Assembly (NCBI GenBank): GCA_043745015.1
Contig: JAYTUA010000096.1
Location: 3,304 to 67,303 of the forward strand
From: Opitutaceae bacterium
Lineage (GTDB): Bacteria > Verrucomicrobiota > Verrucomicrobiia > Opitutales > Opitutaceae
Direction: 5' to 3'
DNA: 64,000 bases
Translations under genes and position numbers: made by a program
The notes under the pieces: generated by a model
Seen by the model: the letters and a program-made list of their open reading frames with translations, nothing else
Databases searched by the model: none
What the model was told of the DNA's origin: nothing
In this document: piece by piece, positions 317-62,722 of the stretch
Numbering within the stretch: position 1 is the first letter of the stretch
Layout of the letters: every line of letters starts with the position of its first letter

Positions 317-319
317 CGG

Positions 320-574: not shown

Positions 575-583
575 CGCTCAGGT

Positions 584-1564: not shown

Positions 1565-1567
1565 GGG

Positions 1568-6189: not shown

Positions 6190-6429
6190 GAGGGAACACT
6201 GTCGCCCGGCCCCGCAGGGGAGTCAACCGGGGCGTGACACAGAAAATCGTTGCGCCGCCGCATTCCGTGGCAATGTTTCCGGTGTCTGGCGCGAACTCGT
6301 GCGCGACCGGACCGCACAGTTCAACCACCGTCTCCGGACACCCCCAGGCCTGATCGCCATGCGACAAGCACTCCAGTCCAGCTCCCGCGCCCTGCAGGTT
6401 TTCCGTTCACGGACCACTGCCGGGGCGGA

Positions 6430-9171: not shown

Positions 9172-9179
9172 TCCATCCC

Positions 9180-9965: not shown

Positions 9966-9971
9966 ATATTT

Positions 9972-10325
9972 ATGCGCCTGACCCTGCTTAAGTCCAAACT
10001 ACACCGCGCAACCGTCACGGCGGCGGATCTGCATTACGAAGGCTCGGTGGCGATCGCGCCGGAGCTGCGCCGGGCGGCGGGCTTCCTCCTGCACGAGCGG
10101 GTGGAGATCTACAACTGCAACAACGGCGAACGCTTCGCGACCTACGTCATTGGTGGGCGGAAGCGCGGCGAGATCATGGTCAACGGCGCGGCGGCCCGGC
10201 TGGTGCAGCCGGGCGACGAGGTCATCATTGCGGCCTACGCTGATTTTGAACCGGCCGAGGCGGAACAGCACCAGCCCGTGGTGGTGTTGCTCGACAAGAA
10301 GAACCGGCCAAAGCGGAAACGCTGA
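9972..10325 (+). CDS. panD: aspartate 1-decarboxylase proenzyme
   Basis: KSKLHRATVT.ADLHYEGS (G|S cleavage site), NGERFATYVI, NGAAARL. Confidence 0.96.
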   Translation: MRLTLLKSKLHRATVTAADLHYEGSVAIAPELRRAAGFLLHERVEIYNCNNGERFATYVIGGRKRGEIMVNGAAARLVQPGDEVIIAAYADFEPAEAEQHQPVVVLLDKKNRPKRKR

Positions 10326-10337
10326 GGGTGGTTCGAT

Positions 10338-10419
10338 CTGTGGGAGCGAAGGGCGACGAACTGGTGCTAGGCTGAGTCCTTTGTAACGTATTATATTACA
10401 AACCCGCTTGGTCCCACAG
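10338..10419. repeat. GTGG-type REP-like inverted pair enclosing an AT-rich palindrome
   Basis: ctgtggga (10338-45) / tcccacag (10412-19), with internal tttgtaa-cgtattata-ttacaaa (10380-10402). Confidence 0.6.
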
Positions 10420-10479
10420 TCTGGACCGGCAGGCATTTCTCCTTTGCCTCAAGGCGGCTTTGCGTGAGTCTGCCCACGC

Positions 10480-11379
10480 ATGTCCGCCGAGCCCATCCGT
10501 TATTTCCACCGTGCCAAGCAGACCGTCGAGACCGAGCAGGTCTATGGCGAGGGCTGGCTGCGCTGGACCTATGGCAATCCGCTGGGCCGCCTGTCGCTGG
10601 AACTGCTCGTGAAGCGTTCGCTGGCTTCGGCCTATTACGGCTGGAAAATGAACTGGCGGGCGAGTGCGAACAAGGTCCTGCCCTTTATCACGGATTACGA
10701 CCTCGACGTGGATGAGTTCGCCAAGAGCCCGTTCGTTTTCAAAACCTTCAATGACTTCTTCTATCGCGCCCTGAAATCAGGCGCCCGGCCCGTCGCGGCG
10801 GGAGACCATGTCGCCGTGCTGCCGGCGGACGGACGGCACCTCGCCTTTCAGAACGTGGACGCAGCGGCGGGCTTCTACGCCAAGGGCCAACACTTCGATC
10901 TCGCCGCGTTCCTCGGTGACGCGGACTTGGCGGCGAAGTTTGCCGGTGGCTCGATGCTCATCTCGCGGCTGTGTCCGGTGGACTACCACCGGTTTCATTT
11001 CCCCGTGGCGGGCACGGCCGGCGAGCCGCGGCTGATCAACGGCTTCCTGTATTCGGTGTCGCCCATCGCGCTGCGCCGGAACCTCGGCTACCTGTGGCAG
11101 AACAAGCGGATGATAACCCTCGTGGACTCGCCGGCCTTTGGGCAGGTCGCGGTTTGCGAGATCGGGGCGACGATGGTGGGGAGCATATTCCAGACTTTCA
11201 TCCCCGGCCGGGCCGTGGCCAAAGGCGAGGAGAAGGGCCTGTTCAAGTTCGGCGGATCGTGCGTCGTGACGCTGTTCCAGCCCGGCAAGATCAAGCTCGA
11301 TGCCGACCTCGTGCAGCATAGCGCCGAGGGTCTCGAGGTTTACGCCCGGATGGGCGAACGGCTCGGTGTGGCCTCGTAA
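10480..11379 (+). CDS. psd: phosphatidylserine decarboxylase proenzyme
   Basis: FNDFFYRALK..ARP, PADG, RLCPVDYHRFHFP, KGEEKG.FKFGGS (self-cleavage GGS). Confidence 0.92.
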   Translation: MSAEPIRYFHRAKQTVETEQVYGEGWLRWTYGNPLGRLSLELLVKRSLASAYYGWKMNWRASANKVLPFITDYDLDVDEFAKSPFVFKTFNDFFYRALKSGARPVAAGDHVAVLPADGRHLAFQNVDAAAGFYAKGQHFDLAAFLGDADLAAKFAGGSMLISRLCPVDYHRFHFPVAGTAGEPRLINGFLYSVSPIALRRNLGYLWQNKRMITLVDSPAFGQVAVCEIGATMVGSIFQTFIPGRAVAKGEEKGLFKFGGSCVVTLFQPGKIKLDADLVQHSAEGLEVYARMGERLGVAS

Positions 11380-11406
11380 GGCTTTCCAATTCCTTAAGAC
11401 AACAAT

Positions 11407-11495
11407 CAACCACGGATTACACAGATGAGCACGGATAAATACCACCTGACTTGGTTTTGCATCTATCCGTGTCTATCCGTGCAATCCGTGGCAAA
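11407..11495. repeat. palindromic ccacggat/atccgtgg nonamer-array repeat
   Basis: aaccacggattacacagatgagcacggat ... atccgtgtctatccgtgcaatccgtgg; same family at 22216-22445, 29424-29525, 33484-33513 and 43025-43120. Confidence 0.75.
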
Positions 11496-13065
11496 ATTAT
11501 TCTGCCAAGTTATCCTCGTGGGCTATGCGAGTCTCGTGTTTGCGGGTGCGGCCGAGCCGGTGTTCAAATTTTCCGAAGCTACGATTGCCGACCTGCAGGA
11601 GCAGATGAAATCCGGCAAACTGACCTCCTCCGCCCTGACCGCCGCCTACCTCGCCCGCATTGCCGAGGTGGACCAGGCGGGACCGAAGCTCAACACCATC
11701 ATCGAGCTCAATCCCGAAGCACTCGCCATCGCCCGGCAACTAGATGCCGAGCGCAAGGCCGGCCACGTGCGCGGGCCGTTGCACGGCATCCCGGTCCTGA
11801 TCAAGGACAACATCGCCACGGCCGACCAGATGGAGACGACGGCCGGTTCGCTGGCGCTGGTCGGGGCACGGCCGCCGCGTGATGCGGCCATCGTCGCGCA
11901 GCTGCGGGCGGCGGGCGCCGTCATTCTGGGCAAGACCAACCTCAGCGAGTGGGCGAATTTCCGCGGGGAGAAATCCATCAGCGGCTGGAGCGGCCGGGGC
12001 GGGCAGACGCACAACCCCTACGCGCTCGACCGCAACACCTCGGGCTCGAGCTCCGGCTCGGCGGCGGCGGTAACAGCCAATCTCTGCGTCGTGGCGGTGG
12101 GCAGCGAGACCGACGGGTCGATCGTTTCGCCGGCCTCGGTCTGCGGGCTCGTGGGGATCAAGCCGACCGTCGGCCTCGTGGGCCGCACCGGCATCATTCC
12201 CATTTCCGTCTCGCAGGACACGGCCGGGCCGATGGCCCGTACCGTGCGCGATGCCGCGCTGTTGCTGGAGGCCATGGCGGGCAGCGATCCCATGGATGCG
12301 GCCTCGCTGACCCGTCCGGCGGGATTGGTCACCGAGTATGCCGCCCGCTTGAAAGCGGGGGCGCTGAAGGGTGCGCGGCTCGGCGTGATCCGCGGACCCT
12401 TTGGGTTGGATGCCCGGCTGAAGCCGATCCTTGACGCGGCCATTGAGAAAATGAAAGCGGCGGGCGCCGAGGTCGTGGACCTCGGGGACTTTCCCGATTT
12501 CAACAAGACCAATGATCCCGAGATGGAAGTGTTGCTCTATGAATACAAGGACGGGCTCAACGCCTACTTCGCGACCCTCGGGCCGGCGTCGCCGATCAAG
12601 TCGGTGGCGGATGTCATCGCCTTCAACCGGGCGCATGCGGCGCAGGAGCTGCCATACTTTGGTCAGGAGTTGCTTGAGCGCGCGCAGGCGAAGGGACCGC
12701 TGACGGAGCAGGCTTATCTGGAGGCCCGGGCCACCTGCCTGAAAGTCACCCGCACCGAGGGGATCGACGCCTTGCTGGCCAAGAACAAACTTGATGCGCT
12801 GGTGAGCCTCACCAACGGCACCGCGTGGTTGATCGACCCGGTGAACGGTGATGCCTACACGGGCGGCAGTTCGTCACCGGCCGCCGTGGCGGGCTACCCC
12901 AGTGTCACGGTGCCGGCGGGGGATTACCGCGGGTTACCCGTGGGGATCTCGTTCTATGGGGCCGCCTGGACTGAGGCGCGACTGCTGGCCTTGGCGGCCG
13001 ATTTCGAGGCACTCGCTCAGGCGCGCCGCGCGCCCGAGTTTCCCGTCACGGTCAATTTGAAGTAG
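11425..13065 (+). CDS. amidase signature (AS) family enzyme, probably exported; start uncertain
   Basis: GPLHGIPVLIKDNI, GKTNLSEW, GSSSGS, GSETDGSIVSPAS (Ser-cisSer-Lys triad); hydrophobic N-terminus ending AGA-AE. Confidence 0.9.
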   Translation: MSTDKYHLTWFCIYPCLSVQSVAKLFCQVILVGYASLVFAGAAEPVFKFSEATIADLQEQMKSGKLTSSALTAAYLARIAEVDQAGPKLNTIIELNPEALAIARQLDAERKAGHVRGPLHGIPVLIKDNIATADQMETTAGSLALVGARPPRDAAIVAQLRAAGAVILGKTNLSEWANFRGEKSISGWSGRGGQTHNPYALDRNTSGSSSGSAAAVTANLCVVAVGSETDGSIVSPASVCGLVGIKPTVGLVGRTGIIPISVSQDTAGPMARTVRDAALLLEAMAGSDPMDAASLTRPAGLVTEYAARLKAGALKGARLGVIRGPFGLDARLKPILDAAIEKMKAAGAEVVDLGDFPDFNKTNDPEMEVLLYEYKDGLNAYFATLGPASPIKSVADVIAFNRAHAAQELPYFGQELLERAQAKGPLTEQAYLEARATCLKVTRTEGIDALLAKNKLDALVSLTNGTAWLIDPVNGDAYTGGSSSPAAVAGYPSVTVPAGDYRGLPVGISFYGAAWTEARLLALAADFEALAQARRAPEFPVTVNLK

Positions 13066-13114
13066 CGCTTGCCCCCCAATCGAAAATCGGGAATCTGAAT
13101 TTGAAAATTCCTTC

Positions 13115-13199
13115 GCCCGGGTGGTGGAATTGGCAGACACAAGGGTCTTAGAAGCCCTCGCCGCAAGGCTTACAGGTTCGAGTCCTGTCCCGGGCACCA
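13115..13199 (+). tRNA. tRNA-Leu(TAG)
   Basis: Acceptor stem gcccggg/cccgggc, D-loop GGAATTGGCAGAC, anticodon arm agggt-CTTAGAA-gccct, long variable arm, T-loop GTTCGAGTC, encoded CCA. Confidence 0.96.
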
Positions 13200-13334
13200 G
13201 CCTCCGCCGAGCCTACGGCTGGCAGGTCAGCTACGCCGGAGAAAGGCGTATGGGTCAAATTACGGCTGGGTTGTGGAGGTAATGGTCGGCCTGTTTCTTG
13301 ACTCCAGTCGGCCAGAAACGACTGTAATCCCTGC

Positions 13335-14555
13335 ATGGGTGAAACGAGCAATGCTCCGACTGCAAAATCCACCGCCGAGACGACGGTGCTGAACATTCTG
13401 CTGGCGCTCAGCCTGTCGCATCTGCTCAACGACACGATCCAGTCGCTCATCCCGGCGATCTATCCGGTGCTGAAGGATTCGTTCCGGCTCAGCTACGCGC
13501 AGATCGGGCTGATCACCTTTGTCTTTCAGATGACGGGCTCGCTGCTCCAGCCGCTCGTCGGTTACTACACCGACCGGCGCCCCAAACCCTATTCACTGGC
13601 CGTGGGCATGGGCGTGACGCTCACCGGGCTGGTGCTGCTGTCGCGCGCCGGCAGTTTTCCCGCGATCCTCATGGCCGCAGCCATGGTGGGCATGGGCTCG
13701 GCGGTCTTTCACCCCGAGGCCTCGCGGGTGGCGCGGCTGGCCTCGGGCGGGCGGCACGGGTTTGCGCAGTCACTTTTCCAAGTGGGCGGCAACCTGGGCT
13801 CGTCGTTCGGACCGCTGCTGGCCGCACTCGTCGTGGTGCCGCACGGGCAGGGCTCGATCCTGTGGTTCTCGGTGATCGCGTTGCTGGGCATCTTCGTGCT
13901 CACCAAGGTGGGCAGCTGGTATCAGCAGCACCTCAATGACCGGGCGAAGAATGGCGCGAAGCACGACGCGCCCCACGTAGTGCTTTCGCGCGGCCGCGTG
14001 GTTGCCGCGCTGGCCGTCCTCGTCGTGCTCATCTTCTCGAAATACATCTACCTGGTCAGCCTGAGCAATTACTACACGTTCTACCTCATGAACCGGTTCG
14101 GGCTGACCGTGCAGGGGTCGCAGTATGCGCTGTTCGTATTCCTGTTCGCCGTGGCGGCGGGCACGATCATCGGTGGTCCGGTGGGGGACCGCATCGGCCG
14201 CAAGCGCGTGATCTGGATTTCCATCCTCGGGGTCGCGCCCTTCTCGCTGCTGCTGCCCCACGTGAACCTGCCGCTGGCGGTGGTGCTCACCGTCTTCATC
14301 GGCCTGATCATGGCGTCGGCTTTCTCCGCCATCATTGTCTATGCGCAGGAACTGGTGCCGGGCAACGTGGGCCTGATCGCCGGCCTGTTCTTTGGGCTGG
14401 CTTTTGGCGCGGCGGGCATCGGCTCGGCCCTGCTCGGCTGGCTGGCCGACCGCACGAGCATCGGGTTCGTGTTCCAAGTCTGTGCCTACCTGCCATTGAT
14501 CGGGCTGCTGACGGGATTATTGCCCGAGGTGGAGCCGCCCCGCCGCCGGGCCTAG
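13335..14555 (+). CDS. fsr: MFS transporter, fosmidomycin-resistance (Fsr) family
   Basis: SHLLNDTIQSLIPAIYP, FHPEASRVARLASGGRHG.AQSLFQVGGN, GG..GDRIGRK; about 12 TM helices. Confidence 0.88.
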   Translation: MGETSNAPTAKSTAETTVLNILLALSLSHLLNDTIQSLIPAIYPVLKDSFRLSYAQIGLITFVFQMTGSLLQPLVGYYTDRRPKPYSLAVGMGVTLTGLVLLSRAGSFPAILMAAAMVGMGSAVFHPEASRVARLASGGRHGFAQSLFQVGGNLGSSFGPLLAALVVVPHGQGSILWFSVIALLGIFVLTKVGSWYQQHLNDRAKNGAKHDAPHVVLSRGRVVAALAVLVVLIFSKYIYLVSLSNYYTFYLMNRFGLTVQGSQYALFVFLFAVAAGTIIGGPVGDRIGRKRVIWISILGVAPFSLLLPHVNLPLAVVLTVFIGLIMASAFSAIIVYAQELVPGNVGLIAGLFFGLAFGAAGIGSALLGWLADRTSIGFVFQVCAYLPLIGLLTGLLPEVEPPRRRA

Positions 14556-14713
14556 GCGGTTCTTGTCCGGGTGATGCAATCTTCGGGAGGCTAATGCCAA
14601 GATCTGCGCAGCCGCCCGGGCGGGTCTCTGCGATGATGGGGTGAGGCCGGTCCATGCCGGGCCGGGCTCCACGCCCCTGTTTGCCACGCCTTACGCCTGA
14701 ACCCCGCCGCCCC

Positions 14714-15706
14714 ATGAAACTCACGACAAATTACCTCGGTCTCGAACTCCGCAATCCCCTGGTGGTCGGCGCGTCGCCGTACTGCGACAACATTGATGCT
14801 GCCAGCCGGCTCGAGGACGCCGGGGCCGGCGCGATTGTCATGCGCTCGCTCTTCGAGGAACAGATCGACTATGAGCAGCGCGCCCGGTCGTTCCTGCTCG
14901 ACACGCCCGGGGAAAGCTTTCCCGCGGCCAAATCCTTTTTCCCCGGGTTCACCGAATACCAGCTGACGCCCGATCGCTACCTGCGCCAGCTCGTCCACCT
15001 GAAGAGCACCCTGAAGATACCCGTCATCGCCTCGCTCAACGGGCACCGGCCGGGCGGCTGGACCGATTACGCCCGGCGGCTCGAGCAGGCCGGCGCCGAT
15101 GCCATCGAGCTGAACCTCTACCAGCTGGCCACCGATCCACGGATCACCGGCCACGAGATCGAGCAGGGCATGCGCGACACGGTGCGGGATGTGGTGAGCA
15201 CGGTGCAGATCCCCGTGGCGGTGAAGATCTCGACGTTCCACACCGCGCCCGCGCAGTTTGCCCTTTCGCTGGAGGAGGCCGGGGCGAAGGGCGTGGTGCT
15301 GTTCAACCGTTTCTATCAGCCTGATTTCAACCTTGAGGACCTCGGGGTCACCCCGCACCTGCGCCTGTCCGATTCCAGCGAGCTGCTGCTGCGGCTCCGC
15401 TGGCTGGCCGTACTGTCGCCGCACCTGCGCGGCTCGCTGGCCTGCAGCGGCGGGGTGCACCACAAGGAGGATGTCATCAAGGCCTTGCTGGCCGGGGCGC
15501 ACACGGTGCAGCTGGTTTCCGTGCTGCTGAAGCAGGGCCCGCAGGTGCTGACGATGTTGCTGGAGGGCCTGCGGCGCTGGATGGACGAGCACGACTACAC
15601 TGACATCAATGAGCTGCGTGGCACCTTGAACCTGAAGCGTTGTCCCGACCCGGCGGCCCACGAGCGCGCCGACTACATCCGCATCTTGCAGAGCTGGCGG
15701 GCCTAG
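14714..15706 (+). CDS. dihydroorotate dehydrogenase-like FMN protein (DHOD_like)
   Basis: MKLTTNYLGLELRNPLVVGASP, SLFEEQI, PVIASLNG, ELNLY, LFNRFYQPD, SGGVH. Confidence 0.88.
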   Translation: MKLTTNYLGLELRNPLVVGASPYCDNIDAASRLEDAGAGAIVMRSLFEEQIDYEQRARSFLLDTPGESFPAAKSFFPGFTEYQLTPDRYLRQLVHLKSTLKIPVIASLNGHRPGGWTDYARRLEQAGADAIELNLYQLATDPRITGHEIEQGMRDTVRDVVSTVQIPVAVKISTFHTAPAQFALSLEEAGAKGVVLFNRFYQPDFNLEDLGVTPHLRLSDSSELLLRLRWLAVLSPHLRGSLACSGGVHHKEDVIKALLAGAHTVQLVSVLLKQGPQVLTMLLEGLRRWMDEHDYTDINELRGTLNLKRCPDPAAHERADYIRILQSWRA

Positions 15707-17166
15707 AACAGTCCCAGCAGCAACGAGGGCATCAAACCGAGCAGCACAATCAGGCCGGCGGTGATGAGCAGGGCGATCGCCGCGGGGGCGGGCACCCGGA
15801 CCGGAGCCGCACCGGCCGCCTGAGCGGCGACCAGCGCCTGCTTCAGGATGAGCAGATAGTAATAGAGCGCCACGGCGCTGAGGGCGATCGCGGCCAGGGC
15901 CAGCCAGCCGGCCGGGCCGGCTAGGCCGCCCAGTTGCAGCACGGAGGCGAAGACGGCGAATTTGCCGAAGAATCCCGCGAGCGGCGGAATGCCCGCCAGC
16001 GAAAGGACAAAGACGGCGAGACAGCCGGCCAGCAGCGGCGAGCGCCGGTGCAATCCGGCCAAGTCAGTGAGCTGCTGGACCGGACCGACAGACTCCAGCG
16101 CGGCGATGACGCCGAACGCGCCAACGGTTGCGAGCCCGTAGGTGGCCGCGTAGTAGAACAACGGGCCCGGGCCGACGCGGCCGGCGGTGATGACCCCGAG
16201 CAGCAGCGCACCGGCGTGCGCGATGGCGGAGTAGGCGAGCAGACGCCGCACATTGGACTGGGCCAGCGCGCCGATATTGCCGAGGAGCAGCGAGGCGCCG
16301 GCGAGGAGGGCGACGACCGGGGCCCAGCCGACGGTCACCGGCAGGTGGGCGATCGTGCCGGCGGCCCCGCCGAGGCCGGGCCAGAGCAGACGCGTGAAGA
16401 GCACGAGGCCGGCGAGCTTGGAAGCCGAGGCGATGAGCGCGGCGGCCGGGGCCGGTGCGCCTTGGTAGACGTCGGGGGCCCAGAGATGGAAGGGGGCGGC
16501 GGCGGCCTTGAAACCGAACGCCACCAGCACCATCACCAGCGCGACGATCAGCAACGGGGACTGGCCCTGCACCGAGAGGTGCGTCGCGATCTGCCCGAGG
16601 TTGATCGAGCCGGTGAGCCCGTAGAGCAGACTGAAGCCGAAAAGCAAAAAGGCGGCGGCCATGCCGCCGAAGAGAAAATACTTCAGGCCCGCCTCGGCCG
16701 ACTCGGGGTTGGTTTTGTCAAAGCCCGCCAGCACGTAGAGCGACAGGCTGGCCAGCTCCAGCGCGAGAAAGGCGATCAGGAGATTGTTGGCGGCGGCCAT
16801 CAGGGTGAACCCCGTGGTGGCGAACAGGAGAATGGCGGTGAACTCGGCGGGATGGCGCAGTCGCGCGGAATTTGGCAGCAGGGCCAGCGCGAGGGCCGCG
16901 AGCAGAATGACGGCGGCCCGCGTGGCGACGGCGAGCTGGTCGAGCATGAACATCCCGTCGTAAATCCGGCCGGTCGCGCCGAACTTGACGGCTTCGTATC
17001 CCGCCATGCCGAGGGCGATGGTCCCGAGCAGGAGGGCGACATGATGGCGGTTGGCCGGCCGGTGCCGCGCCCAGACCATGTCGAAAATGAGCACGAGCAA
17101 GGCGCCGATCACCAGATGCGTCTCGGGGCGCAGCGCGCGGAAAAGTCCGGCATAGTCGGCGTTCAT
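15703..17166 (-). CDS. nuoN: NADH-quinone oxidoreductase subunit N
   Basis: ALELASLSLY, EAGLKYF, FKAAAAPFHLWAPDVYQGAP, RLLAYSAIAHAG, SLAGIPPLAGFFGKF. Confidence 0.93.
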   Translation of the reverse strand: MNADYAGLFRALRPETHLVIGALLVLIFDMVWARHRPANRHHVALLLGTIALGMAGYEAVKFGATGRIYDGMFMLDQLAVATRAAVILLAALALALLPNSARLRHPAEFTAILLFATTGFTLMAAANNLLIAFLALELASLSLYVLAGFDKTNPESAEAGLKYFLFGGMAAAFLLFGFSLLYGLTGSINLGQIATHLSVQGQSPLLIVALVMVLVAFGFKAAAAPFHLWAPDVYQGAPAPAAALIASASKLAGLVLFTRLLWPGLGGAAGTIAHLPVTVGWAPVVALLAGASLLLGNIGALAQSNVRRLLAYSAIAHAGALLLGVITAGRVGPGPLFYYAATYGLATVGAFGVIAALESVGPVQQLTDLAGLHRRSPLLAGCLAVFVLSLAGIPPLAGFFGKFAVFASVLQLGGLAGPAGWLALAAIALSAVALYYYLLILKQALVAAQAAGAAPVRVPAPAAIALLITAGLIVLLGLMPSLLLGLF

Positions 17167-53938: not shown

Positions 53939-55231
53939 TCAGGCGCGCTTCAGCACGTCGCGCGGGGTGGTCTCGGTGGGCGCGGGGTCGGTGAGCTCCT
54001 TGGCCCCCTTGGCGCCGAGCTCGGAGAATTTGCGGGCACCGGGCAGCAGGGTCTGCTCGAAGGAGCCGACGGCGGAATTGTAGGCCTTGCTGGCGGTCTC
54101 GAGGCCGCGGCCGACCTTGTCGAGGTTGTCGGCGAAGTTGGCGATGCGGTCGTAGAGCGCGCGGCCAAGGTCGGCGATGATCTGCGCGTTCTTGGACACA
54201 TCCTCCTGGCGCCAGCCGTAGGCGGCGGCCTTGAGCAGGGCGATGAGCGTGGCGGGCGTGGCGAGCAGGACTTTCTTCGCGATGGCGCGGTCGATGAGCG
54301 TCGGGTCGCCCTGCAACGCGCCGGAGAGGAACTGGTCGCCGGGGAGAAAGAGCACGACGAACTCGGGCGAGGGCTGGAACTGCTCCCAGTAATTCTTGGC
54401 GCCGAGGGCGTCGATATGGCCGCGGACCTTGGCGGCGTGCTCGGCGAGCTTGGCGGAGCGGACGGTCTCGTCGGAGGCGTTGGCCGCCTCGCGGTAGGCG
54501 TCGTTGGGGGCCTTGGCGTCGATGACGATCTGCTGGCCGCCGGGCAGGCGGACAATGAGGTCGGGCCGGAAGCCGCCGGACGACTGCTGCTCGACGAAAT
54601 CGCAGTAGGAGCTCATGCCCGACATCTCGACGACGCGGCGCAGCTGGAGTTCGCCCCAGGTGCCGGCAGTGGTGGTGGAGCGCAGGGCGGTGGTGAGCTT
54701 GGAGGCCTCGGCCTGCAGGGAGACCTGCGCGGTGCCGAGCGACTTCAACTGTTCGGAGAGCTGGCCGTAGGCGGAGGCGCGGGCCTTCTCGATCTCGCCG
54801 ATCTTGGCATCAACTTTCTCGAGCGACTCCTTGAGCGGTTTGACCATCGAGTCGATGGCCTGCTGGCGTTTGCCGAGTTCGTCGGCGGACTGCTGGTGGA
54901 GCTTGCCGAAGCTCTCGCGGGCGAGGTCGAGGAAGGACTGGTTGTTGGAGCGGAGAGCGTCGGCGGAGAGGGCCTTGAAGGACGAGGTCAGGCGGTCGTG
55001 GGCGTCGGTGAGGGCTTGGATTCTTTCCGCCGCGGTGGCACGTTCCGTGGCGAGGGCATTTTCGATTTTGGATTTTAGATTTTCGATTTCCACCAAGCGG
55101 GCGCGGGCGGCGGCGAGTTCCGCCTCCATGAGGCGGGCGCGCTCGGCGGTGGCGGCGGAACGGGACTGGGCGATGAACCAGCCGAGGGCAGCGCCGACCA
55201 GTACGCCGATGATGAGAAAGAGAAAATCCAT
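53939..55231 (-). CDS. rmuC: DNA recombination protein RmuC
   Basis: N-terminal TM and coiled coil, G.WGELQL.RVVEMSGM...CDF.EQ, RPDLIVRLPG...IVIDAKAP, PEFVVLFLP, ATPATLIALL. Confidence 0.93.
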   Translation of the reverse strand: MDFLFLIIGVLVGAALGWFIAQSRSAATAERARLMEAELAAARARLVEIENLKSKIENALATERATAAERIQALTDAHDRLTSSFKALSADALRSNNQSFLDLARESFGKLHQQSADELGKRQQAIDSMVKPLKESLEKVDAKIGEIEKARASAYGQLSEQLKSLGTAQVSLQAEASKLTTALRSTTTAGTWGELQLRRVVEMSGMSSYCDFVEQQSSGGFRPDLIVRLPGGQQIVIDAKAPNDAYREAANASDETVRSAKLAEHAAKVRGHIDALGAKNYWEQFQPSPEFVVLFLPGDQFLSGALQGDPTLIDRAIAKKVLLATPATLIALLKAAAYGWRQEDVSKNAQIIADLGRALYDRIANFADNLDKVGRGLETASKAYNSAVGSFEQTLLPGARKFSELGAKGAKELTDPAPTETTPRDVLKRA

Positions 55232-55245
55232 CGGAGGGAAGTGAA

Positions 55246-55351
55246 GTAGGGCGGTCGGCTGGGCGCAAGCGCGCAACCGGCTCCTGGTAACGCGGGGTGA
55301 GGGCACCCCGCCCACACAGACCGAGCGGCCCGTAGGGACGCGGGCCCTCCA
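55246..55351. repeat. cluster of REP-like elements
   Basis: 26-bp REP 55291-55316 plus GGAG-type half cggcccgtagggacgcgggccctcca 55326-55351. Confidence 0.75.
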
Positions 55352-55356
55352 GCGAA

Positions 55357-57162
55357 TCAAGCGCGCAGGGTGCCGAGGGAGATCTGGATGTCGGTGCCCT
55401 TCATGCCGGGGCCGGCCTGGAGGGTGCCGCCGTGCAGGCGGAGGATTTCGCGGGCGAGGAAGACGGAGAGGCGGCCCTGGTTGGGCGTGGCCCCGGCGAC
55501 GGGCAGGGGCAGGGTGCCGTCGAGTTCCAGGCGCTTGCCCTCAATGGTGATGACGGCGGTGGTCTGGGCCCCGGTGCCGACGCCTCGGAGCGTGAGGATA
55601 AGATGCTGCAAGCCCTCGTCGGGGCGGTTGGCGGAGATCGCATCAAGGATCGAGCAGAAGGCGAATTTCACCAAAACCGGGTCGAGCGACAGCACCAGCT
55701 GTTCATCGACGAAGCGGGTGGTGAGGTTGCGGGCCGTGGCGATCTCGGTGAGGAGGGCGCTGAGGTCGGTGGCCTTGGCCACCGGCAGGGCGATCTCGCC
55801 GAGCAGAGTGGCGTGCTCGTTGAGCAGCTTGAGCTTGGCGACCTCGGTGGTGAGGACGGTTTCCTGGGCGAGAGCGGCGCTGCCCACGGGGGAAGTGCTG
55901 CCGCGGGTCAGGAGATGGGCAAAGGTGACGAGGGAGACGAGGGGATTGGACAGCTCGTGACTGAGCGTGAGGCCGAGATTGCGGAAAAGTTCGCGGCGGT
56001 TCTGCTCGAGGATGACGTTGACGCGCTCGATCTCGGGGGCGGCATCCTCCCAGATGGCCCAGACGCCGTCGATCTCGGGCACGGGACCGGCTTGGACGCG
56101 ATAGCGGTAGGGGACCCGGGCCGGTTGCAGGACCATCTGCTGTGTGTGGAGGGCCTCGCTGGCGACGGCGCGCACCTCGACGGGCAGCTCGGAGGTGGCC
56201 AGCTCGGCGCGGGTGATCAGGCGGGCCCCGGGAAGATATCTGGCGTGCAGGGCGGTGGTCTGCCCGGCCTGGTGGTAGTCGCGCAACTGGGTCGAGCGCT
56301 CCAGGCAGCGCTCCAGCAGGCGGCCGTGGAGGACGGCGCGGAAACGGTCGGATTCGCGGTAAGGGGCGCCATCGGCGCGCGGGCCCAGGGCCATCCAACC
56401 CAGGAGCTGGCCGTGGGTATGGAGCGGGACCAGGATGCGGGCGCCCCAAGTGACAAGTTGCTGGCGGATGGGGGCGTCGAGCGCGGGATCGTCGATGCCG
56501 GTCCAATGGCTGAGATCGACGGCGGCGGGATGCTCCTCGAGCCAGAGCACCAGGGGGTGGCTGTTTTCGCAGCGGTGGGCCTCGTCGTCCGAGACGAAGG
56601 CGTCGAGCTGGCGGAAAAAATAGAGCACCTTGCCGGACTTCAAAATGTAGCGGGCGGCGCGGCGGAATTCGTCCAGCAGTCGAGGCTGGTCATCGAGGTG
56701 GGCGAGGGCGCTCTCCAGAAAATCCCAGGACTCGACCGGCTCGGCCGCGGCGGGGGCGGTCTCGCGCGGAAACGGCGGCTCACTGCGGCGGCTGCGCTCG
56801 AGGGCGGATTGCAGCTGGGAATTCTTGTCGGCGATTTCCTCGAGGAGATTCACGCATTCGCCGAGGCGTTCGCGGCTCTCGCTGTAGCTGAGGAACAGCC
56901 GGGCGGAACGGTTCTGCTTGGCCTGCTCGAAGGGATGGCTGTGGGGCTCGCCGACGAGGATGACGAGGGTGCCGTGGCCGGTGGAAAGGCGGGTGCGGGG
57001 ATCGTTGACGTCAGAGATCCAGACGCGGGCGCCGGGGCGGAGCAATTCGCGCTGCAGGTCGGCGGGGCGGGCGAAGACGGCGGGTTCGCGGGGGTGGAGG
57101 ATTTTTTTCCATGCAGCCTCGAGGCTGGGGTCGGTGGTGGTCAGGATGATGGTGGCGGGCAT
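55357..57162 (-). CDS. histidine-kinase-like protein: degenerate receiver-like + GAF-like + DHp + degenerate ATPase domain
   Basis: H-box LSHELSNPL retained; GAF-like ILVPL...GQLLGWMALGPRADGAPY; N, G1 and G2 boxes not recognisable; ends ILRLHGGTL...GT.I.I.L. Confidence 0.75.
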   Translation of the reverse strand: MPATIILTTTDPSLEAAWKKILHPREPAVFARPADLQRELLRPGARVWISDVNDPRTRLSTGHGTLVILVGEPHSHPFEQAKQNRSARLFLSYSESRERLGECVNLLEEIADKNSQLQSALERSRRSEPPFPRETAPAAAEPVESWDFLESALAHLDDQPRLLDEFRRAARYILKSGKVLYFFRQLDAFVSDDEAHRCENSHPLVLWLEEHPAAVDLSHWTGIDDPALDAPIRQQLVTWGARILVPLHTHGQLLGWMALGPRADGAPYRESDRFRAVLHGRLLERCLERSTQLRDYHQAGQTTALHARYLPGARLITRAELATSELPVEVRAVASEALHTQQMVLQPARVPYRYRVQAGPVPEIDGVWAIWEDAAPEIERVNVILEQNRRELFRNLGLTLSHELSNPLVSLVTFAHLLTRGSTSPVGSAALAQETVLTTEVAKLKLLNEHATLLGEIALPVAKATDLSALLTEIATARNLTTRFVDEQLVLSLDPVLVKFAFCSILDAISANRPDEGLQHLILTLRGVGTGAQTTAVITIEGKRLELDGTLPLPVAGATPNQGRLSVFLAREILRLHGGTLQAGPGMKGTDIQISLGTLRA

Positions 57163-59171
57163 GGAAAAGTAATGCGGAAGGTGGCTCCGGGCCTTCCGAC
57201 ATCGGGGACGATGATGGTGGCACGGTGTTCGTGCAAGATATCTGCGCAGACAGCAAGTCCCAGGCCCATACCTTTGGTTTTCGTGGAGACAAAGGGATGG
57301 AAGAGCCGGGCGCGTTGCTCGGTGGGGATGCCCGGACCATTGTCGGATACCTCGAGAATGATGCTGCCGTTGGGGGAATTACGGGACCGGAGCTGCACGC
57401 GGCGCTCGCCTTCCTGGGACTCGAGGGCCTGAAAGGCATTTATTAAAAGATTTATCAAAACTTGCCGCATCGCACTGGCGTCGGCCCAAATGGTGTCGCT
57501 CGCGGCATTCAACTGCGTGGTGAGGGCGACCTTGGCTTCCTGGGCGCGGGTAAGCATCAGGTCGGTGGTCTCCTGCATGATGGTATGCAGTGAGACGCGC
57601 TCCAGATGGTGGCGGCGGGGGTTGGAGAGGTCGAGCAACTGCTGGGTGAGGTTGTCGATGCGCTCCACCTCGGCCGGGATCAAGAGACTGAACCGGCGGC
57701 GGAAATCAGGGTCGTCAAAACGCGTGGGCAGCAGATGGGAGAAGGTCTTGATTGACACGAGGGGGTTGCGGATCTCGTGGGCGAGGCTGGCCCCGATGAG
57801 GCCGATGGTGGCGAGCTGCTCGGACTGCCGGGCCTGCATGGACAGGCGGGAGCGCGCGAGGATGTTGTCCATGAACTCGGCGATTTCCTGTGCCTGCTGC
57901 ACCTTGGGGTAGGTGAAGGGCCGGTGATTGGTCTTGATGCCGAGGGCGAGCAGGAGCGAGGGTGTCGCGCTGCCGCGCGGGGCGGTGACCACCAGGCCGA
58001 GGTTGAACTCGGTGACAAACTGCCGGAGGTCGACGAGACCGGGCTCGGGCCGGAGGCGTTGCAGGCTCTCGGGGGTGCTCCAGCCCTGTTTGCAGAGTGC
58101 GGCGTAAGCCGGGCGGTCCTTGGTCAGCTCAATATTGCCCGAGACAAAAACCTCGCCACTGTCAAAGAGCAAGGCGGCGTAGCCGGTCTGGCCCCAGGAG
58201 CGGAGGAGCGCCTCGAATTCCGCGATGAGCTTGGCGGGATCGGTTTCGCGGCGGGCCAGCTCGAGGGCGGTCTGGCGGGTGGCGGCCGTGTTTTGCCACG
58301 GGCTGAGGCTGAACCATTCGCGGGATTTGCCCTCCAGCCAGAAGGCGAGGGTGCTGCAGAGCGCGATGCTCAGAATCAGATCCCCCGGCGGAGGCATCAC
58401 CAAGGCGAGCAGCCGCCAGAAAAAGTAGGTGCCGGTGCTGAGCAGAAAAATCAGACCCACCCGTTGCGCGACGCTGAGAAAGACCTGCCGGGCGTCGAAG
58501 ACGCGGTGGACGGTGACGGACCAGGCGGTGAGCCCGTAGAAAACCAGGATGATCAGCGGAGTAAGCCGGGAGAGAAAACGCAGGTCGAAGAAGATGCCCA
58601 ACGCGTTAACGATGATGGCGACGAAGCAAGCGATGCCGGCGTTCAGAATCAGAAACTGCAGCTCGAGCCGGCGGATGCCTGTTTGCGTTCGCCACTGCCG
58701 GTAGGTCTCGATGATCAGGTGCAGGTAAAGCACCAAGCTGACCCCGGTATAAATATAATAGCCTGGTCCACGAAGTTCGGCGCCCGGACGCGACTCCGGG
58801 GGAATATAGTATTTTGTATAGCAAAGGCCGGCCAAGGCGCAGCCGATTACTGACCAGGCTAACACTTGATAGTTTATCCGTCCGCCCCGTCTTTCTACGT
58901 TAAGGATCGATTCCTTCATGTCCCAGATCAACAGGGGGAAAAATGCGCCCACAGCTGAAGCAGCTCTCACCCAAGGAATCGGGTTGGCCGCCTGACCAGC
59001 ATTGAGCAGGACGCCCGCTCGCATGGCCATATATACACAATAGAGCCAGCTGGCATTGATCAGGGAGAAGGCGAGAAAGGCCTTGTTGGTCAACCGATGG
59101 GGGTTGGCCCAGTAAACAGTCAGGCCAATCGCGAACGTTATCAGCGCAGCGATGAGGATCAGCAGGGACAT
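57141..59171 (-). CDS. membrane sensor histidine kinase (HisKA_7TM-like + GAF-like + HisKA + HATPase), PrsK-like architecture
   Basis: About 9 hydrophobic helices; LAHEIRNPL, QVLINLLINA, DNGPGI, LFHPFVSTKTKGMGLGL. Confidence 0.92.
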   Translation of the reverse strand: MSLLILIAALITFAIGLTVYWANPHRLTNKAFLAFSLINASWLYCVYMAMRAGVLLNAGQAANPIPWVRAASAVGAFFPLLIWDMKESILNVERRGGRINYQVLAWSVIGCALAGLCYTKYYIPPESRPGAELRGPGYYIYTGVSLVLYLHLIIETYRQWRTQTGIRRLELQFLILNAGIACFVAIIVNALGIFFDLRFLSRLTPLIILVFYGLTAWSVTVHRVFDARQVFLSVAQRVGLIFLLSTGTYFFWRLLALVMPPPGDLILSIALCSTLAFWLEGKSREWFSLSPWQNTAATRQTALELARRETDPAKLIAEFEALLRSWGQTGYAALLFDSGEVFVSGNIELTKDRPAYAALCKQGWSTPESLQRLRPEPGLVDLRQFVTEFNLGLVVTAPRGSATPSLLLALGIKTNHRPFTYPKVQQAQEIAEFMDNILARSRLSMQARQSEQLATIGLIGASLAHEIRNPLVSIKTFSHLLPTRFDDPDFRRRFSLLIPAEVERIDNLTQQLLDLSNPRRHHLERVSLHTIMQETTDLMLTRAQEAKVALTTQLNAASDTIWADASAMRQVLINLLINAFQALESQEGERRVQLRSRNSPNGSIILEVSDNGPGIPTEQRARLFHPFVSTKTKGMGLGLAVCADILHEHRATIIVPDVGRPGATFRITFPCPPPSS

Positions 59172-60370
59172 GATTTTTCCACCACGAGAATAGCGTTACT
59201 GCCGGACAAACCGTGGGCATTCACCATCGCCACATGGGGGCTAAGATAGCGCGACTGGGAATTCAGGTTCAACGGGCACTGAGGATCACGGGTTTCCCAG
59301 TTTACGGTCGGGGGTATCTGGCCATGCCGCAGGCTCAGGGCGACGCTCGCCACTTCAATAGCCCCGGCGGCGGCCAAGGCGGTCCCGATCGCCCCCTTGA
59401 TGGAGGTAACGGGAATATTAGCCAGCAGGTCGCCAAAAATTTGCCGTAGGGCGGTGGATTCATTGGTGTCAATGGCCCGGTGTCCCGGGCCCCAGGCGCA
59501 GATGTAGTCCACCTCATCGGCGCGCCGGGAGGCATTGGCCAACGCGATGCGGGCGGCATCGGCGATGCCTTCGCCCGCGAGTTTGTTGCCGTCGCTGGCA
59601 TAGCCGTAGCCGGTGATCCAGGCATAGGCCGGGCGCGGGCTTTCCTCGGGTTCAAGGATGAGCATGGCGGCGCCTTCGCCGAGCACGCCGGTGGAGCGCC
59701 AGAGATCGAAGGGCCGGCAGGAGCGGGAAATTTCGCTATCGTTGGTCGGGCTCAGTTCCGCGGCATTAAACTCGAGCAAGGGGTGAAAGGAGAGCGGGGC
59801 CTCGCTGCCGCCGGCAATAGCCAGATCACACTGTCCTTCGGCCACCAGATCCGCGGCCTGGCCAATGGCATCGAGGCCCGAGCAGCAGGAAGTCTGCACC
59901 GCGATCATCCGCGCGGGAATGCCCAGATAACTGGCAATTTTCCCGGGTACGCTCACGACGGATGATTCATAGATGGTGCTGGCCATGGAGTAACGCGGGC
60001 CTTTCTGGGCCACGACCTGAACCCCACGACTGATGCGGTCGATATCCATGATGGAAGTGCCGGTGATCACCGACGGGTTCAACTTGCAGATTTCCTCGAT
60101 CGTCAGACCTGCGTCCTTGATCGCCAGCAAGGCGGCCACCAAGCCCAATTGGGTATGGCGGGACAGGCGGCGGGGATTTTCCTCCGGAGCATATTCCTTG
60201 AGATTAAAATCGGTAACCTCGGCCCCCATGAAGATGCCCGCGGCGGGATCAAAACGCGTGATGGCATGCACGCGGCTGACGGACTCGTTGATGCCGCGGA
60301 AGAAGGCCTCGCGGCCGATGCCCGCCGGGGTGACCGGGCCGATGCCGGTGATTTTAACGCGACGGCGCAT
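59159..60370 (-). CDS. atypical FabF-like beta-ketoacyl synthase (Cys kept, both His replaced)
   Basis: RRVKITGIG.VTP.GIG, TSCCSG.DAIG, AGGSEAP, CRPFD..R...VLGEGAA, IPPTVN...DP.C.L; CAWGPGH and KGAIGT at the His positions. Confidence 0.9.
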   Translation of the reverse strand: MRRRVKITGIGPVTPAGIGREAFFRGINESVSRVHAITRFDPAAGIFMGAEVTDFNLKEYAPEENPRRLSRHTQLGLVAALLAIKDAGLTIEEICKLNPSVITGTSIMDIDRISRGVQVVAQKGPRYSMASTIYESSVVSVPGKIASYLGIPARMIAVQTSCCSGLDAIGQAADLVAEGQCDLAIAGGSEAPLSFHPLLEFNAAELSPTNDSEISRSCRPFDLWRSTGVLGEGAAMLILEPEESPRPAYAWITGYGYASDGNKLAGEGIADAARIALANASRRADEVDYICAWGPGHRAIDTNESTALRQIFGDLLANIPVTSIKGAIGTALAAAGAIEVASVALSLRHGQIPPTVNWETRDPQCPLNLNSQSRYLSPHVAMVNAHGLSGSNAILVVEKSCPC

Positions 60371-60599
60371 GGGCGGATAGCGGAGCGGGGTCGGTCGGGG
60401 ACATGGGCATCACGGGGATGAGATGATTGGCGGCCGGGTGATGAACAAGGCCGGCAGGAGACCGATCCGGGATTGGAGTCGTGCCCTCGCCATCACAAAC
60501 CGCGACTGGCACGTTAGGTGGACAACGGGGATGACAGCAAGCCCCGGGTGCAAAAGAGATTTGCCCCCCGGTGCCGGTGCAAGCAAAACAGCGGAGCAC

Positions 60600-61490
60600 A
60601 TGACTCCGCTCGAATTTGAAGCCTCCATTGCCGCCTGGGCCCGGCGGCAACCCGATGTGGAAGCCCTCATGCAAATCGGGTCCAGGGTTCAGGCCGGAGC
60701 GGAGGTCGATGCCTGGTCAGACTGGGACTACCATTTGATCACGAGCAATCCGGCGCGCTACCAGAACAGCGAGTGGCCGAAGCAGATCGGGCCAACCTGG
60801 TGCGTCCACTTGGAACGGACGGAGCGCGGGGTCACCAAGCTGAGCGCCGTATTTGAGGGCGGCCGGGAAGCCGACTTTGTGCCCCTTGCCGCGTGGCAGA
60901 TGAAGTTGGTCTATTGGGCGATGGCCCGGCCGGGCATGCGTGGGATTTTCCCCCAGGCACTGGTGCGCGGGATTGCCAATACGCAGCTCATTGTCCGCCC
61001 GGGCTGCAAGGTATTGGTGGGTGGTCCGGCCTGGGAGAAACGACTGGACGCGCTCAAGGTTGCCTGGCCGGACAGCAGGCTGACGAGCGAGGAATATCAA
61101 TTTCATGCGGCCGGTTTCTGGCGGCATGCTGTCTGGGTGCAGAAGAAAATCATGCGGGGCGAGACGCGCGCGGCCCTGCGCTGGTCTCAAGTCGAACTGG
61201 GAAAACACCGCTGGGCGCTGCTGGAAGAGGAGGCGCGGCTGGCGGGCCGCCCGGCGCGGCCCGAGGCGCGCAAGGCCGAGCAATGGCTCGAGGCCCGGAG
61301 GCGGGAGCAGACCGCGATTACCACCAGCACCGACCAGCGGGTGCTGGCCCGGGCGTTATTGGCGGAGCTGGCCTTGTTTGAGGAGGTTTGCCGGAGCGTG
61401 GCCGGGAGCCGGGGCTTTGCCGTGCCAGATTACTCGGCCGTAGCCGCCTGGTTGCGGGCCGAACTCGCGAAACTGACGGGCCCGGCCTAG
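60600..61490 (+). CDS. Pol-beta-superfamily nucleotidyltransferase, AadK/ANT(6)-like fold
   Basis: W.......V.A..QIGSR......D.WSDWD, F.GG.EADF, FW......KKI.RGE, ARKAEQW. Confidence 0.75.
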   Translation: MTPLEFEASIAAWARRQPDVEALMQIGSRVQAGAEVDAWSDWDYHLITSNPARYQNSEWPKQIGPTWCVHLERTERGVTKLSAVFEGGREADFVPLAAWQMKLVYWAMARPGMRGIFPQALVRGIANTQLIVRPGCKVLVGGPAWEKRLDALKVAWPDSRLTSEEYQFHAAGFWRHAVWVQKKIMRGETRAALRWSQVELGKHRWALLEEEARLAGRPARPEARKAEQWLEARRREQTAITTSTDQRVLARALLAELALFEEVCRSVAGSRGFAVPDYSAVAAWLRAELAKLTGPA

Positions 61491-62659
61491 CTGCCGGGCT
61501 GGGCGGCGGGAAACGACATCGTGAAGACCGTGCCGCCGCCGGCGCGGGCCGCGACTTGCATCTCCCCCTGGTGGGCTGAGACGATGTGCCGGCAGATGGT
61601 CATCCCGAGGCCGGTCCCGTGCGCCTTGGTGGACTCGACGGGCTTCTTGAGGATGCTCTCCATCATGGCCGGGGGCAGGCCGCTGCCATTGTCGGCGACG
61701 GCCAGCACGATGCGGCCATCCCGGCGCGCGACCGTGACGCCCACCTGGGTGGCGCCGGACTCCAGGGCATTCTTCACGAGATTCTGCAACAGGCGCACAA
61801 TTTCGAAGCGGATGCCATTGATCAACGCGCCCTGGTCCCCGGCTACTTCCACGCGATTGGTGCCAAAAAAGAGCACGGTCTTGGTGTCCACGGCCGTGGC
61901 ATGGAGATCCACCGTGTCCACTTCGCCGGAGTGACGGGTGGTCTGCCGCCAGGATTCGGCCAGGTGCAGGCAGAAGGAGGAGCATTTCTCGAGGGTCTCG
62001 GCGTAATGGAGAATCCGTTCCACGCTGCGGCCGCCGGACGGCAACTGGCGCACCTCATCGAGCAGCATGTTGGTGTAGCCGATGGCGACGACCAGCGGGT
62101 TGCAGATGTCGTGGATCATCTCGGCCGCGGCCTGGCTGAAGCCGGCGGTCATCTGCTGCTTCTTCTGGTCGATTTTGACCGACTCATACATGCCCTCGAG
62201 CTGTTTGAGCATCGACGTGCGCTTCTTGCGCTCGATACCCTCGCTGGCATGACGGCGCACGGACTGCTGGAGCACATCGACGTCGAAGGGTTTCTTCAGA
62301 TATTCGTTGGCGCCGAGGCTGATCGCCGCCTGGGCGGTGGCGAGGGCGCCATAACCGGTCATCATGATGATGGAGACCTCGGGATCGATCTTGCGCATGG
62401 CCTCCAGGCCCTGGATGCCGTTTTTCTGCGGCATGCGGATGTCCATCACGACCACGGCAAAAGACTCGCGGGTGAGCAATTCGAGCCCGCGGTCCACGCG
62501 ATCCACCGCCTGCACCTCGAACTCGTCCTGCAGCAGGTAGCTGATGCTTTCCCGGGGGCCGAGCTCATCGTCCACGATCAATACCTTGGGCCGGCCGGCG
62601 ACGGGCGGGGTGGATTGGACGGGCGGGGTGGATTGGACGGGCGAGACGGCTTCAGGCAT
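61487..62659 (-). CDS. hybrid receiver-histidine kinase (REC-HisKA-HATPase), cytoplasmic
   Basis: VLIVDDE, MDIRMP, MTGY, YLKKPF; HDICNPL, NLVKNA, DNGSG, GTGLGM. Confidence 0.92.
   Translation of the reverse strand: MPEAVSPVQSTPPVQSTPPVAGRPKVLIVDDELGPRESISYLLQDEFEVQAVDRVDRGLELLTRESFAVVVMDIRMPQKNGIQGLEAMRKIDPEVSIIMMTGYGALATAQAAISLGANEYLKKPFDVDVLQQSVRRHASEGIERKKRTSMLKQLEGMYESVKIDQKKQQMTAGFSQAAAEMIHDICNPLVVAIGYTNMLLDEVRQLPSGGRSVERILHYAETLEKCSSFCLHLAESWRQTTRHSGEVDTVDLHATAVDTKTVLFFGTNRVEVAGDQGALINGIRFEIVRLLQNLVKNALESGATQVGVTVARRDGRIVLAVADNGSGLPPAMMESILKKPVESTKAHGTGLGMTICRHIVSAHQGEMQVAARAGGGTVFTMSFPAAQPGS
62600..62643. repeat. 18-bp tandem duplication
   Basis: gacgggcggggtggattg x2.4, encoding PVQSTP-PVQSTP. 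Confidence 0.85.
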
Positions 62660-62722
62660 GGGTGGGTTGGCGGCACGCTGCACCCTGCCCGCGGCTTTGG
62701 CAATCCGAAGCTTGGGCGGCGT

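Follow-up and report, generated by a model that had tools for sequence, protein, structure and literature searches.

A 64,000-nucleotide stretch of DNA from an Opitutaceae bacterium (contig JAYTUA010000096.1; the whole stretch is called the window below) carries a gene for a ketosynthase-like protein (KS) with the fold of the β-ketoacyl-acyl carrier protein (ACP) synthases (KAS) I and II, followed by genes for a multi-pass sensor histidine kinase (the 7TM kinase, for seven-transmembrane) and a degenerate kinase paralogue. With two further genes, which encode a receiver (REC) domain fused to an intact kinase core (the REC-kinase) and a nucleotidyltransferase (NTase), these make up a five-gene unit that is real and strongly conserved in the Opitutaceae. 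We propose that the unit is a lipid-linked multikinase cassette and give this proposal an even chance of being correct: the KS would make or process an acyl-derived hydrophobic molecule, the 7TM bundle would read it, the dead paralogue would partner the kinase and the REC-kinase would serve as the exit. The cassette points to an unstudied link between a lipid-like molecule and bacterial signalling.

Conservation of the unit was assessed in a scan (here the Opitutaceae scan) with one genome per species, which returned 208 loci with a KS relative; the cassette counts come from the best 80 of these. By record title, all 80 belong to the Opitutaceae or Opitutales, save one metagenome-assembled genome (MAG) labelled Gemmatimonadota. 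The 7TM kinase gene lies directly 3′ of the KS gene, its start a few bases from the KS stop, in 77 of the 78 loci with room for it, and in most loci the two frames overlap by 4-13 bp. The degenerate kinase comes next after the 7TM kinase (65/68 loci), and the REC-kinase is encoded upstream on the same strand in 60/65 loci, abutting the KS in 25. The NTase was found in 65 of the 80 loci: in 34 it occupies the opposite strand between REC-kinase and KS, the inverted arrangement also present in the window, and in 31 it follows the degenerate kinase on the same strand. A flavoenzyme gene of the vanillyl-alcohol oxidase type (VAO/PCMH-like) abuts the KS in 13/80 loci; at L014 and L016 it overlaps the start of a Trp-type KS gene by 4 bp.

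An earlier reading of the window (the original prediction) had described KS, 7TM kinase and degenerate kinase as three overlapping genes that form a dedicated ketosynthase/sensor-kinase unit. The coordinates of these open reading frames (ORFs) and their overlaps, 13 bp for KS/7TM kinase and 22 bp for 7TM kinase/degenerate kinase, were reproduced exactly, and both start sites are backed by conserved orthologue N-termini. The view that the KS is not a stray gene of fatty acid synthase (FAS) or polyketide synthase (PKS) clusters also stands, as a kinase adjoins it in all but one of the 78 loci and an ACP never does. When we checked whether such proteins usually lie away from kinases or within FAS/PKS clusters, they did not. 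The limit of three genes was drawn too narrowly: the REC-kinase and the NTase are conserved members, and the VAO-type flavoenzyme joins the unit in relatives.

The sole locus without an adjacent 7TM kinase (L052/L176) is on a complete 6.5-Mb Opitutaceae chromosome, where the 7TM kinase and the NTase are found together about 1.9 Mb away. Their joint relocation, away from the REC-kinase, KS and degenerate kinase, suggests a functional tie between the NTase and the 7TM kinase. The atlas neighbours of the NTase are ANT(6)-family clusters (score 0.96), and its score against the NCBIfam model AadS is far below the cut-off.

Among 201 Opitutaceae genomes sampled, a KS orthologue (E ≤ 1e-90) was present in 77, each time in single copy, and in 25 of 60 genera. 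This patchy single-copy distribution fits an accessory signalling system and not for housekeeping lipid synthesis. Cultured carriers (Oleiharenicola lentus, Oleiharenicola sp. Vm1 and Horticoccus sp.) make the question of its function directly testable. In an isolate of Oleiharenicola lentus (L026, 10233-14141), an insert of some 3.9 kb separates the 7TM kinase from the degenerate kinase. The MAG labelled Gemmatimonadota (L056) carries an Opitutaceae-type cassette with a Trp-type KS of 53% identity and with RmuC and the REC-kinase in the usual order; it probably reflects a binning error, and transfer is less likely.

The KS contains both ketoacyl-synt domains (Pfam PF00109, 2.6e-32; PF02801, 2.3e-22) and the nucleophilic Cys, which places it among the KAS I/II thiolase-fold condensing enzymes. 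Against the fabF equivalog model TIGR03150 it scored 266.7 bits, short of the cut-off of 493.75, and none of the other NCBIfam KS models reached its own cut-off. The protein aligns end to end with Thermus thermophilus FabF (1j3n; E 2.4e-57). In this alignment the catalytic Cys is kept as C162, the first catalytic His is replaced by W293 and the second by T330, in agreement with the predicted stand-alone, rewired ketosynthase. The remodelled site comprises C162-C163, W293-G-P-G-H297, K325, T330 and H386. In eight diverse orthologues (40-76% identity), C162, C163, W293-G-P-G-H297, D301, E304, K325 and H386 are all invariant. As the active-site residues are unchanged down to 40% identity, the site is under selection and not decaying.

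At the position of the first His, the KSs of the Opitutaceae scan have Trp in 83/88 and Cys in 4/88, and only one of the 88 has the canonical His-His pair. The four orthologues with Cys for Trp (L074 and L089 among them) have a Cys-Cys...Cys site with a thiolase-like flavour. The KS has in common with FabF/KAS II the two-domain thiolase fold, the nucleophilic Cys, the Lys and the Asp/Glu scaffold; it differs in reaching about half of the equivalog cut-off, in having Trp/Thr for His-His, in having no adjoining ACP and in the sensor kinase 3′ of it. As for the type II PKS pairs of ketosynthase and chain length factor (KS/CLF), no partner KS or ACP is present in the window, and the Streptomyces KS/CLF pairs branch separately and lack kinases. 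From its sequence and context, the protein is therefore neither a FabF (score, triad and ACP context all fail) nor one half of a KS/CLF pair.

The 7TM kinase has a hydrophobic N-terminal third and an AtoS/ZraS-like core (Pfam HisKA, 1.3e-9; HATPase_c, 1.3e-20). It consists of a putative, divergent HisKA_7TM domain (residues 1-290), a GAF-like linker and HisKA plus HATPase_c. With H, N, G1, F and G2 boxes conserved in 65 orthologues, it is a class I histidine kinase. Neither this protein nor any Opitutaceae orthologue matched the Pfam HisKA_7TM model (PF16927) directly. On the other hand, a profile of 22 Opitutaceae N-termini aligned by hhalign with six Pfam-positive HisKA_7TM domains at 99.9% probability (E 2.7e-32, 247 columns), and we conclude from this that the 7TM kinase is probably a divergent member of the HisKA_7TM family. 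An AlphaFold2 (AF2) model of its first 300 residues (pLDDT 86) has about nine helices. The predicted "7TM" identity is thus backed by the family profile and not by a direct Pfam match. A Foldseek search of this model against the PDB gave a non-significant resemblance to bundles of the G-protein-coupled receptor type (best E 0.0095, TM-score ~0.5), which was not used to assign a ligand class. A full-length 7TM kinase paralogue of ~30% identity, with no adjacent KS, was seen about 5 kb upstream of the cassette at three loci (L008-L010, the same as L039, L044 and L050; ~1300-3330). Not every HisKA_7TM kinase, therefore, is paired with a KS.

The degenerate kinase gave no Pfam match at E<0.01, with a weak HisKA signal (0.0023) around the H-box, and nothing significant was found when pieces of the protein were scanned against Pfam. 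Its AF2 model (pLDDT 83) contains a REC-like α/β domain (1-92), a GAF-like domain (147-308), a PAS-like domain (314-373), a dimerization and histidine phosphotransfer domain (375-458) and a domain resembling a catalytic and ATP-binding (CA) domain, in which the lid (549-562) is disordered. Among 60 orthologues the H-box His402 is invariant and the G1 (DxGxG) and G2 boxes are absent from the consensus. The protein thus lacks the complete set of N, G1 and G2 boxes of a class I CA domain, and it has no HATPase_c match. The name "pseudokinase" given by the original prediction is right for ATP binding, where the G-boxes and lid are degenerate, but the H-box is intact, and the protein can still act as a phospho-acceptor or dimer partner. 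The counterpart in Chthoniobacterales and Kiritimatiellia is an intact GAF-PAS-HisKA-HATPase kinase.

Across 64 orthologues the REC-kinase keeps its phospho-acceptor Asp and its H-, N- and G-boxes, and the fusion of a receiver to an intact kinase core gives it a PhcR-like architecture. Its receiver is the only one on the contig. It follows that no DNA-binding regulator is encoded nearby, as had been predicted.

Relatives beyond the Opitutaceae were collected as the 150 closest cluster representatives drawn from 1.8 billion proteins and in a second genome scan, which used a 6-sequence alignment (a 15-sequence one was too diverse); phyla were assigned from record titles. Most of the stand-alone matches among the 150 representatives are non-canonical, with the pattern C / H or W / GP(G,S)(H,D) / K / N / H. 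The second scan found members of the KS clade in Chthoniobacterales, with Tyr for the first His, and in Lentisphaerae and Kiritimatiellales, with His or Asn. The layout in these three groups is a divergent REC-kinase, the KS, a HisKA_7TM-GAF-PAS kinase and a GAF-PAS kinase. The Chthoniobacterales KS also has Arg at the position of H386. A Cys-His-Gln group includes Brocadia and other Planctomycetota, Armatimonadota, Thermodesulfobacteriota and Rokubacteria, of which the Rokubacteria keep both His. Dethiobacter (Bacillota) has a Cys-His-Asn/Ser KS that branches with the group from the Planctomycetota, Verrucomicrobiota and Chlamydiota (PVC).

The genes around these KSs vary. A B12-radical S-adenosylmethionine (SAM) gene lies upstream of the KS in Brocadia and Thermodesulfobacteriota, methyltransferase genes lie upstream of the KS in Dethiobacter and also occur at one Nitrospirota locus with a canonical KS, and the downstream genes of the non-Opitutaceae relatives include NtrC-type (REC-sigma54-helix-turn-helix) or REC-HD-GYP regulators. 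One relative of 37% identity has a FadL-type porin before the KS and a HisKA_7TM protein after it. At another locus (L018:379-1638), a FadL/Toluene_X outer-membrane channel gene is divergent from a Cys-His-Asn KS.

Where enough flanking sequence was available, every Cys-bearing KS without the His-His dyad was followed by a kinase, in at least six phyla. Among 37 Cys-His-His KSs with enough flank, acpP adjoined the KS in 17 and a kinase lay within 3 kb in four, two of which belong to the kinase-linked clade. A FastTree phylogeny places the Trp-type Opitutaceae clade as sister to the other PVC kinase-linked KSs; it is compatible with either one clade or two for the PVC group and the Cys-His-Gln group. 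The cassette is not specific to Opitutaceae, and the Trp variant is derived within a family that spans several phyla. Peculiar to the Opitutaceae form are the Cys-Cys/Trp-Gly-Pro-Gly-His site, the second kinase dead for ATP binding, the fixed NTase and a cluster with no output regulator.

The original prediction had proposed comparing the divergence of the KS with that of the sensor domain. We did so with exploratory partial Mantel tests (3000 permutations) on 33 complete Opitutaceae cassettes. The 7TM region evolves fastest, with a mean p-distance of 0.66 compared to 0.45-0.52 for the other parts. A specific signal was obtained for the KS and the 7TM region (partial Mantel r 0.50, reached in 0/3000 permutations, with the REC-kinase and the cytoplasmic half of the kinase as controls). 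No co-divergence of the KS was found with the kinase core, the REC-kinase or the degenerate kinase (r 0.02 for the last), and the degenerate kinase tracked the cytoplasmic half of the 7TM kinase (r 0.90). In their divergence, the KS groups with the sensor domain, and the bodies of the two kinases group with each other.

By analogy, the closest described kind of system would be the pair of a lipid-signal synthase and a membrane kinase. The two partners are encoded and inherited together here, as seen in the 77/78 adjacent loci, the spread over at least six phyla and the KS-sensor co-divergence. The phcBSRQ operon of Ralstonia quorum sensing encodes the synthase PhcB, the sensor kinase PhcS, the receiver-kinase PhcR and the receiver protein PhcQ, and thus combines an enzyme for a fatty-acid-derived signal with a membrane histidine kinase and a soluble receiver-kinase that has no DNA-binding domain (PMC8578825). 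The KS, 7TM kinase and REC-kinase are the counterparts of PhcB, PhcS and PhcR, respectively. However, PhcB is a methyltransferase where the cassette has a ketosynthase, the sensor domains, as far as tested, are not related, and the Opitutaceae cassette adds the ATPase-dead kinase and the NTase.

In the Vibrio CqsA/CqsS and Legionella LqsA/LqsS systems, an enzyme that uses acyl thioesters produces a lipid ketone, which a multi-pass kinase reads within the membrane. CqsA and LqsA are pyridoxal phosphate-dependent acyl-CoA transferases, CqsS and LqsS are six-helix sensors of a different family, and these systems have no second or third kinase. The Vibrio Cqs relay ends in the NtrC-type regulator LuxO, and an NtrC-type endpoint also occurs in the Kiritimatiellia and Thermodesulfobacteriota versions of the cassette. 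A KAS I/II fold, a HisKA_7TM sensor and a second kinase with a dead ATPase are all absent from the Phc, Cqs and Lqs systems. On the enzyme side, the KS0 domains of trans-acyltransferase PKSs keep the Cys, lack the catalytic His and are taken to pass on an acyl chain without decarboxylative condensation. The KS resembles them in fold, in the Cys kept and in the missing catalytic His; it differs in that KS0 domains lie inside megasynthases with ACPs, whereas the KS is free-standing, has the W-G-P-G-H loop and is tied to kinases.

We know of no KAS I/II-type enzyme that is a partner of a two-component system, and the literature searched, which left out most subscription journals, held no description of a ketosynthase/HisKA_7TM module. 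The cassette is apparently undescribed. The original claim that no characterised system has such a composition is nevertheless correct for the ketosynthase fold only, as a synthase encoded with a membrane kinase is known from phcBSRQ.

In the mechanism that we propose, Cys162 of the KS would take up an acyl group from the housekeeping pool of acyl-ACP or acyl-CoA. The remodelled pocket of the KS, in which Trp293, His297 and His386 replace the His-His dyad, would make or process a hydrophobic, acyl-derived small molecule, and in relatives this molecule may be tailored further by the VAO-type flavoenzyme, the B12-radical-SAM enzyme or the methyltransferase. The molecule would partition into the membrane, where the fast-evolving 7TM bundle encoded by the next gene would read it. 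The 7TM kinase would then autophosphorylate, working with its ATPase-dead paralogue, which has kept the phospho-acceptor His, co-evolves with the cytoplasmic half of the kinase and could be a trans-phosphorylated partner or a modulator. The phosphoryl group would probably pass to the receiver of the REC-kinase and on to a regulator encoded elsewhere. The flavoenzyme, radical-SAM, methyltransferase and ANT(6)-like transferase genes beside the KS seem to imply a small-molecule substrate and would be hard to explain otherwise.

Several observations weigh against this proposal. In the sublineage to which the window belongs, the NTase is the sole tailoring enzyme, and a thioesterase, an exporter and an ACP are all missing. 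In the alignment with 1j3n, the FabF gate GFGG is GLSG in the KS, and the loop that bears the DAxHxT motif is five residues shorter. Since the gating-loop motifs differ and the His-His dyad is gone, Claisen condensation with malonyl-ACP is unlikely. The first His has been swapped lineage by lineage, for Trp in Opitutaceae, Tyr in Chthoniobacterales, Asn in some Kiritimatiellales/Lentisphaerae and Cys at four loci. Its repeated replacement beside an invariant Cys indicates that the protein can do without canonical malonyl decarboxylation but not without acyl-Cys chemistry; such constancy of the Cys would fit an acyl-binding role as well as it fits catalysis. As to co-divergence, shared ancestry inflates partial Mantel statistics, and an identical signal would be expected if the KS gene and the neighbouring 5′ half of the kinase gene had been exchanged as one piece. 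The sequencing runs that hold the stretch are four DNA runs from one sediment study, and no RNA runs are listed.

Some of this would suit a KS that makes nothing. It could be speculated that Cys162 is acylated by acyl-ACP or acyl-CoA, or that the pocket holds a bound acyl group, and that the 7TM kinase reads this state by contact, so that the KS would be an acyl-thioester sensor or regulatory subunit and the cassette would report fatty-acid or lipid status to the phosphorelay. The original prediction had offered such an acyl-sensing subunit alongside a signal synthase. This is possible, and we regard it as rather doubtful. The invariance of Cys162 and of the K325/D301/E304 scaffold, next to a decarboxylation His pair lost or swapped repeatedly and independently, is consistent with it, as are the locus without ACP, thioesterase or exporter and the overlapping frames, which suggest matched expression. 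The divergence of the KS also tracks the sensor domain specifically, as an interface would. However, genes for flavoenzymes, radical-SAM enzymes, methyltransferases and nucleotidyltransferases recur at the KS, the Trp-type included, and the patchy accessory distribution is unexpected for a sensor of lipid homeostasis. The invariant W-G-P-G-H loop, moreover, resembles the result of selection for new chemistry.

Another possibility is that the kinases sense something unrelated and that the KS is their output or merely a co-regulated lipid-modifying enzyme. Regulated enzymes commonly occupy the first gene of an autoregulated operon, the NtrC-type regulator of the relatives could drive its own operon, and the link from the KS to kinase input rests on no direct evidence. 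We nevertheless consider it unlikely: the partner is one sensor family, HisKA_7TM, in at least six phyla and not kinases generally, the KS co-diverges with the sensor domain and not with the kinase core, degenerate kinase or REC-kinase, and at most loci the reading frame of the KS overlaps that of the kinase. It is highly improbable that chance has left the KS beside kinases as the dead relic of a FabF paralogue in decay. Its frame is intact and single-copy in 77 genomes, its orthologues keep 40-92% identity with invariant active-site loops and do not have neutral substitution patterns, and the adjacency extends over 77/78 loci and across phyla, although both catalytic His are gone and the score falls far under the fabF cut-off.

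No ligand is known for HisKA_7TM, and the literature that names the domain merely lists it. The cassette provides a testable idea, namely that the neighbouring ketosynthase defines the cue of a HisKA_7TM kinase. It is present in about 40% of the sampled Opitutaceae and in several poorly studied phyla, anammox bacteria included; therefore, one characterised example would annotate hundreds of orphan kinases. Its study could bring to light lipid-derived signals of a new class, or a new means of sensing acyl-thioester pools. If the KS is a receptor subunit, it would be a direct wire from fatty-acid-synthesis flux to a phosphorelay, and the first condensing-enzyme pseudoenzyme to act as a two-component sensory subunit.

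The features of the locus are given in Table 1.

Table 1. Genes of the cassette and its downstream neighbour, in positions of the window.
Feature	Position	Strand	Details
KAS I/II-fold ketosynthase-like protein (KS)	59159-60370	minus	403 aa; ketoacyl-synt N and C domains
Multi-pass sensor histidine kinase (7TM kinase)	57141-59171	minus	676 aa; HisKA and HATPase_c
Degenerate kinase paralogue	55357-57162	minus	601 aa; H-box intact, ATPase degenerate
REC-HisKA-HATPase protein (REC-kinase)	61487-62683	minus	Response_reg 4.2e-25, HATPase_c 5.3e-22
ANT(6)/Adenyl_transf-like nucleotidyltransferase (NTase)	60423-61490	plus	PF04439, 1.5e-8, N-terminal part only
RmuC	53939-55360	minus	downstream of degenerate kinase

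Encoded within about 5 kb are RmuC, a MOSC protein, MoxR, the NTase-like protein, the REC-HisKA-HATPase protein and an ATP-binding cassette (ABC) ATPase. As the original prediction had stated, no acyltransferase, reductase or dehydratase is among them, and the contig has no PP-binding (ACP) match. The locus also has no thioesterase or exporter, and the window has no second KS. The source genome (3.05 Mb, 84% complete) encodes four other KS paralogues at 26-29% identity, and each of its four PP-binding matches adjoins one of these.

Between positions 53500 and 63000, a scan for sigma-70 promoters found no promoter-like site, and terminator-like sites were no commoner than in shuffled sequence. 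Matches to the sigma-54 -24/-12 pattern were rarer than in shuffles, with none upstream of the operon.

The ORF at 53939-55360 was considered as an NtrC-type regulator and rejected, as it encodes RmuC. RmuC borders the cassette in most Opitutaceae loci, on a side that varies with subclade, probably as a matter of plain synteny. With the TTG listed as its start, the RmuC frame would overlap the degenerate kinase by 4 bp; this start is unlikely to be real because matches to orthologues begin at residues 35-60.

A second KS locus, on contig C221, was considered as a second cassette and likewise rejected: it is a KS-ACP-amine-oxidase cluster without a 7TM kinase. In this cluster (4000-17000, ~205-8654) the KS and ACP are followed by two amine-oxidase/phytoene-desaturase-like flavoproteins and a TIM-barrel protein, and an NtrC-type REC-sigma54 regulator is encoded 1.6 kb upstream. 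The cluster looks like one of the unsaturated-lipid or polyene type.

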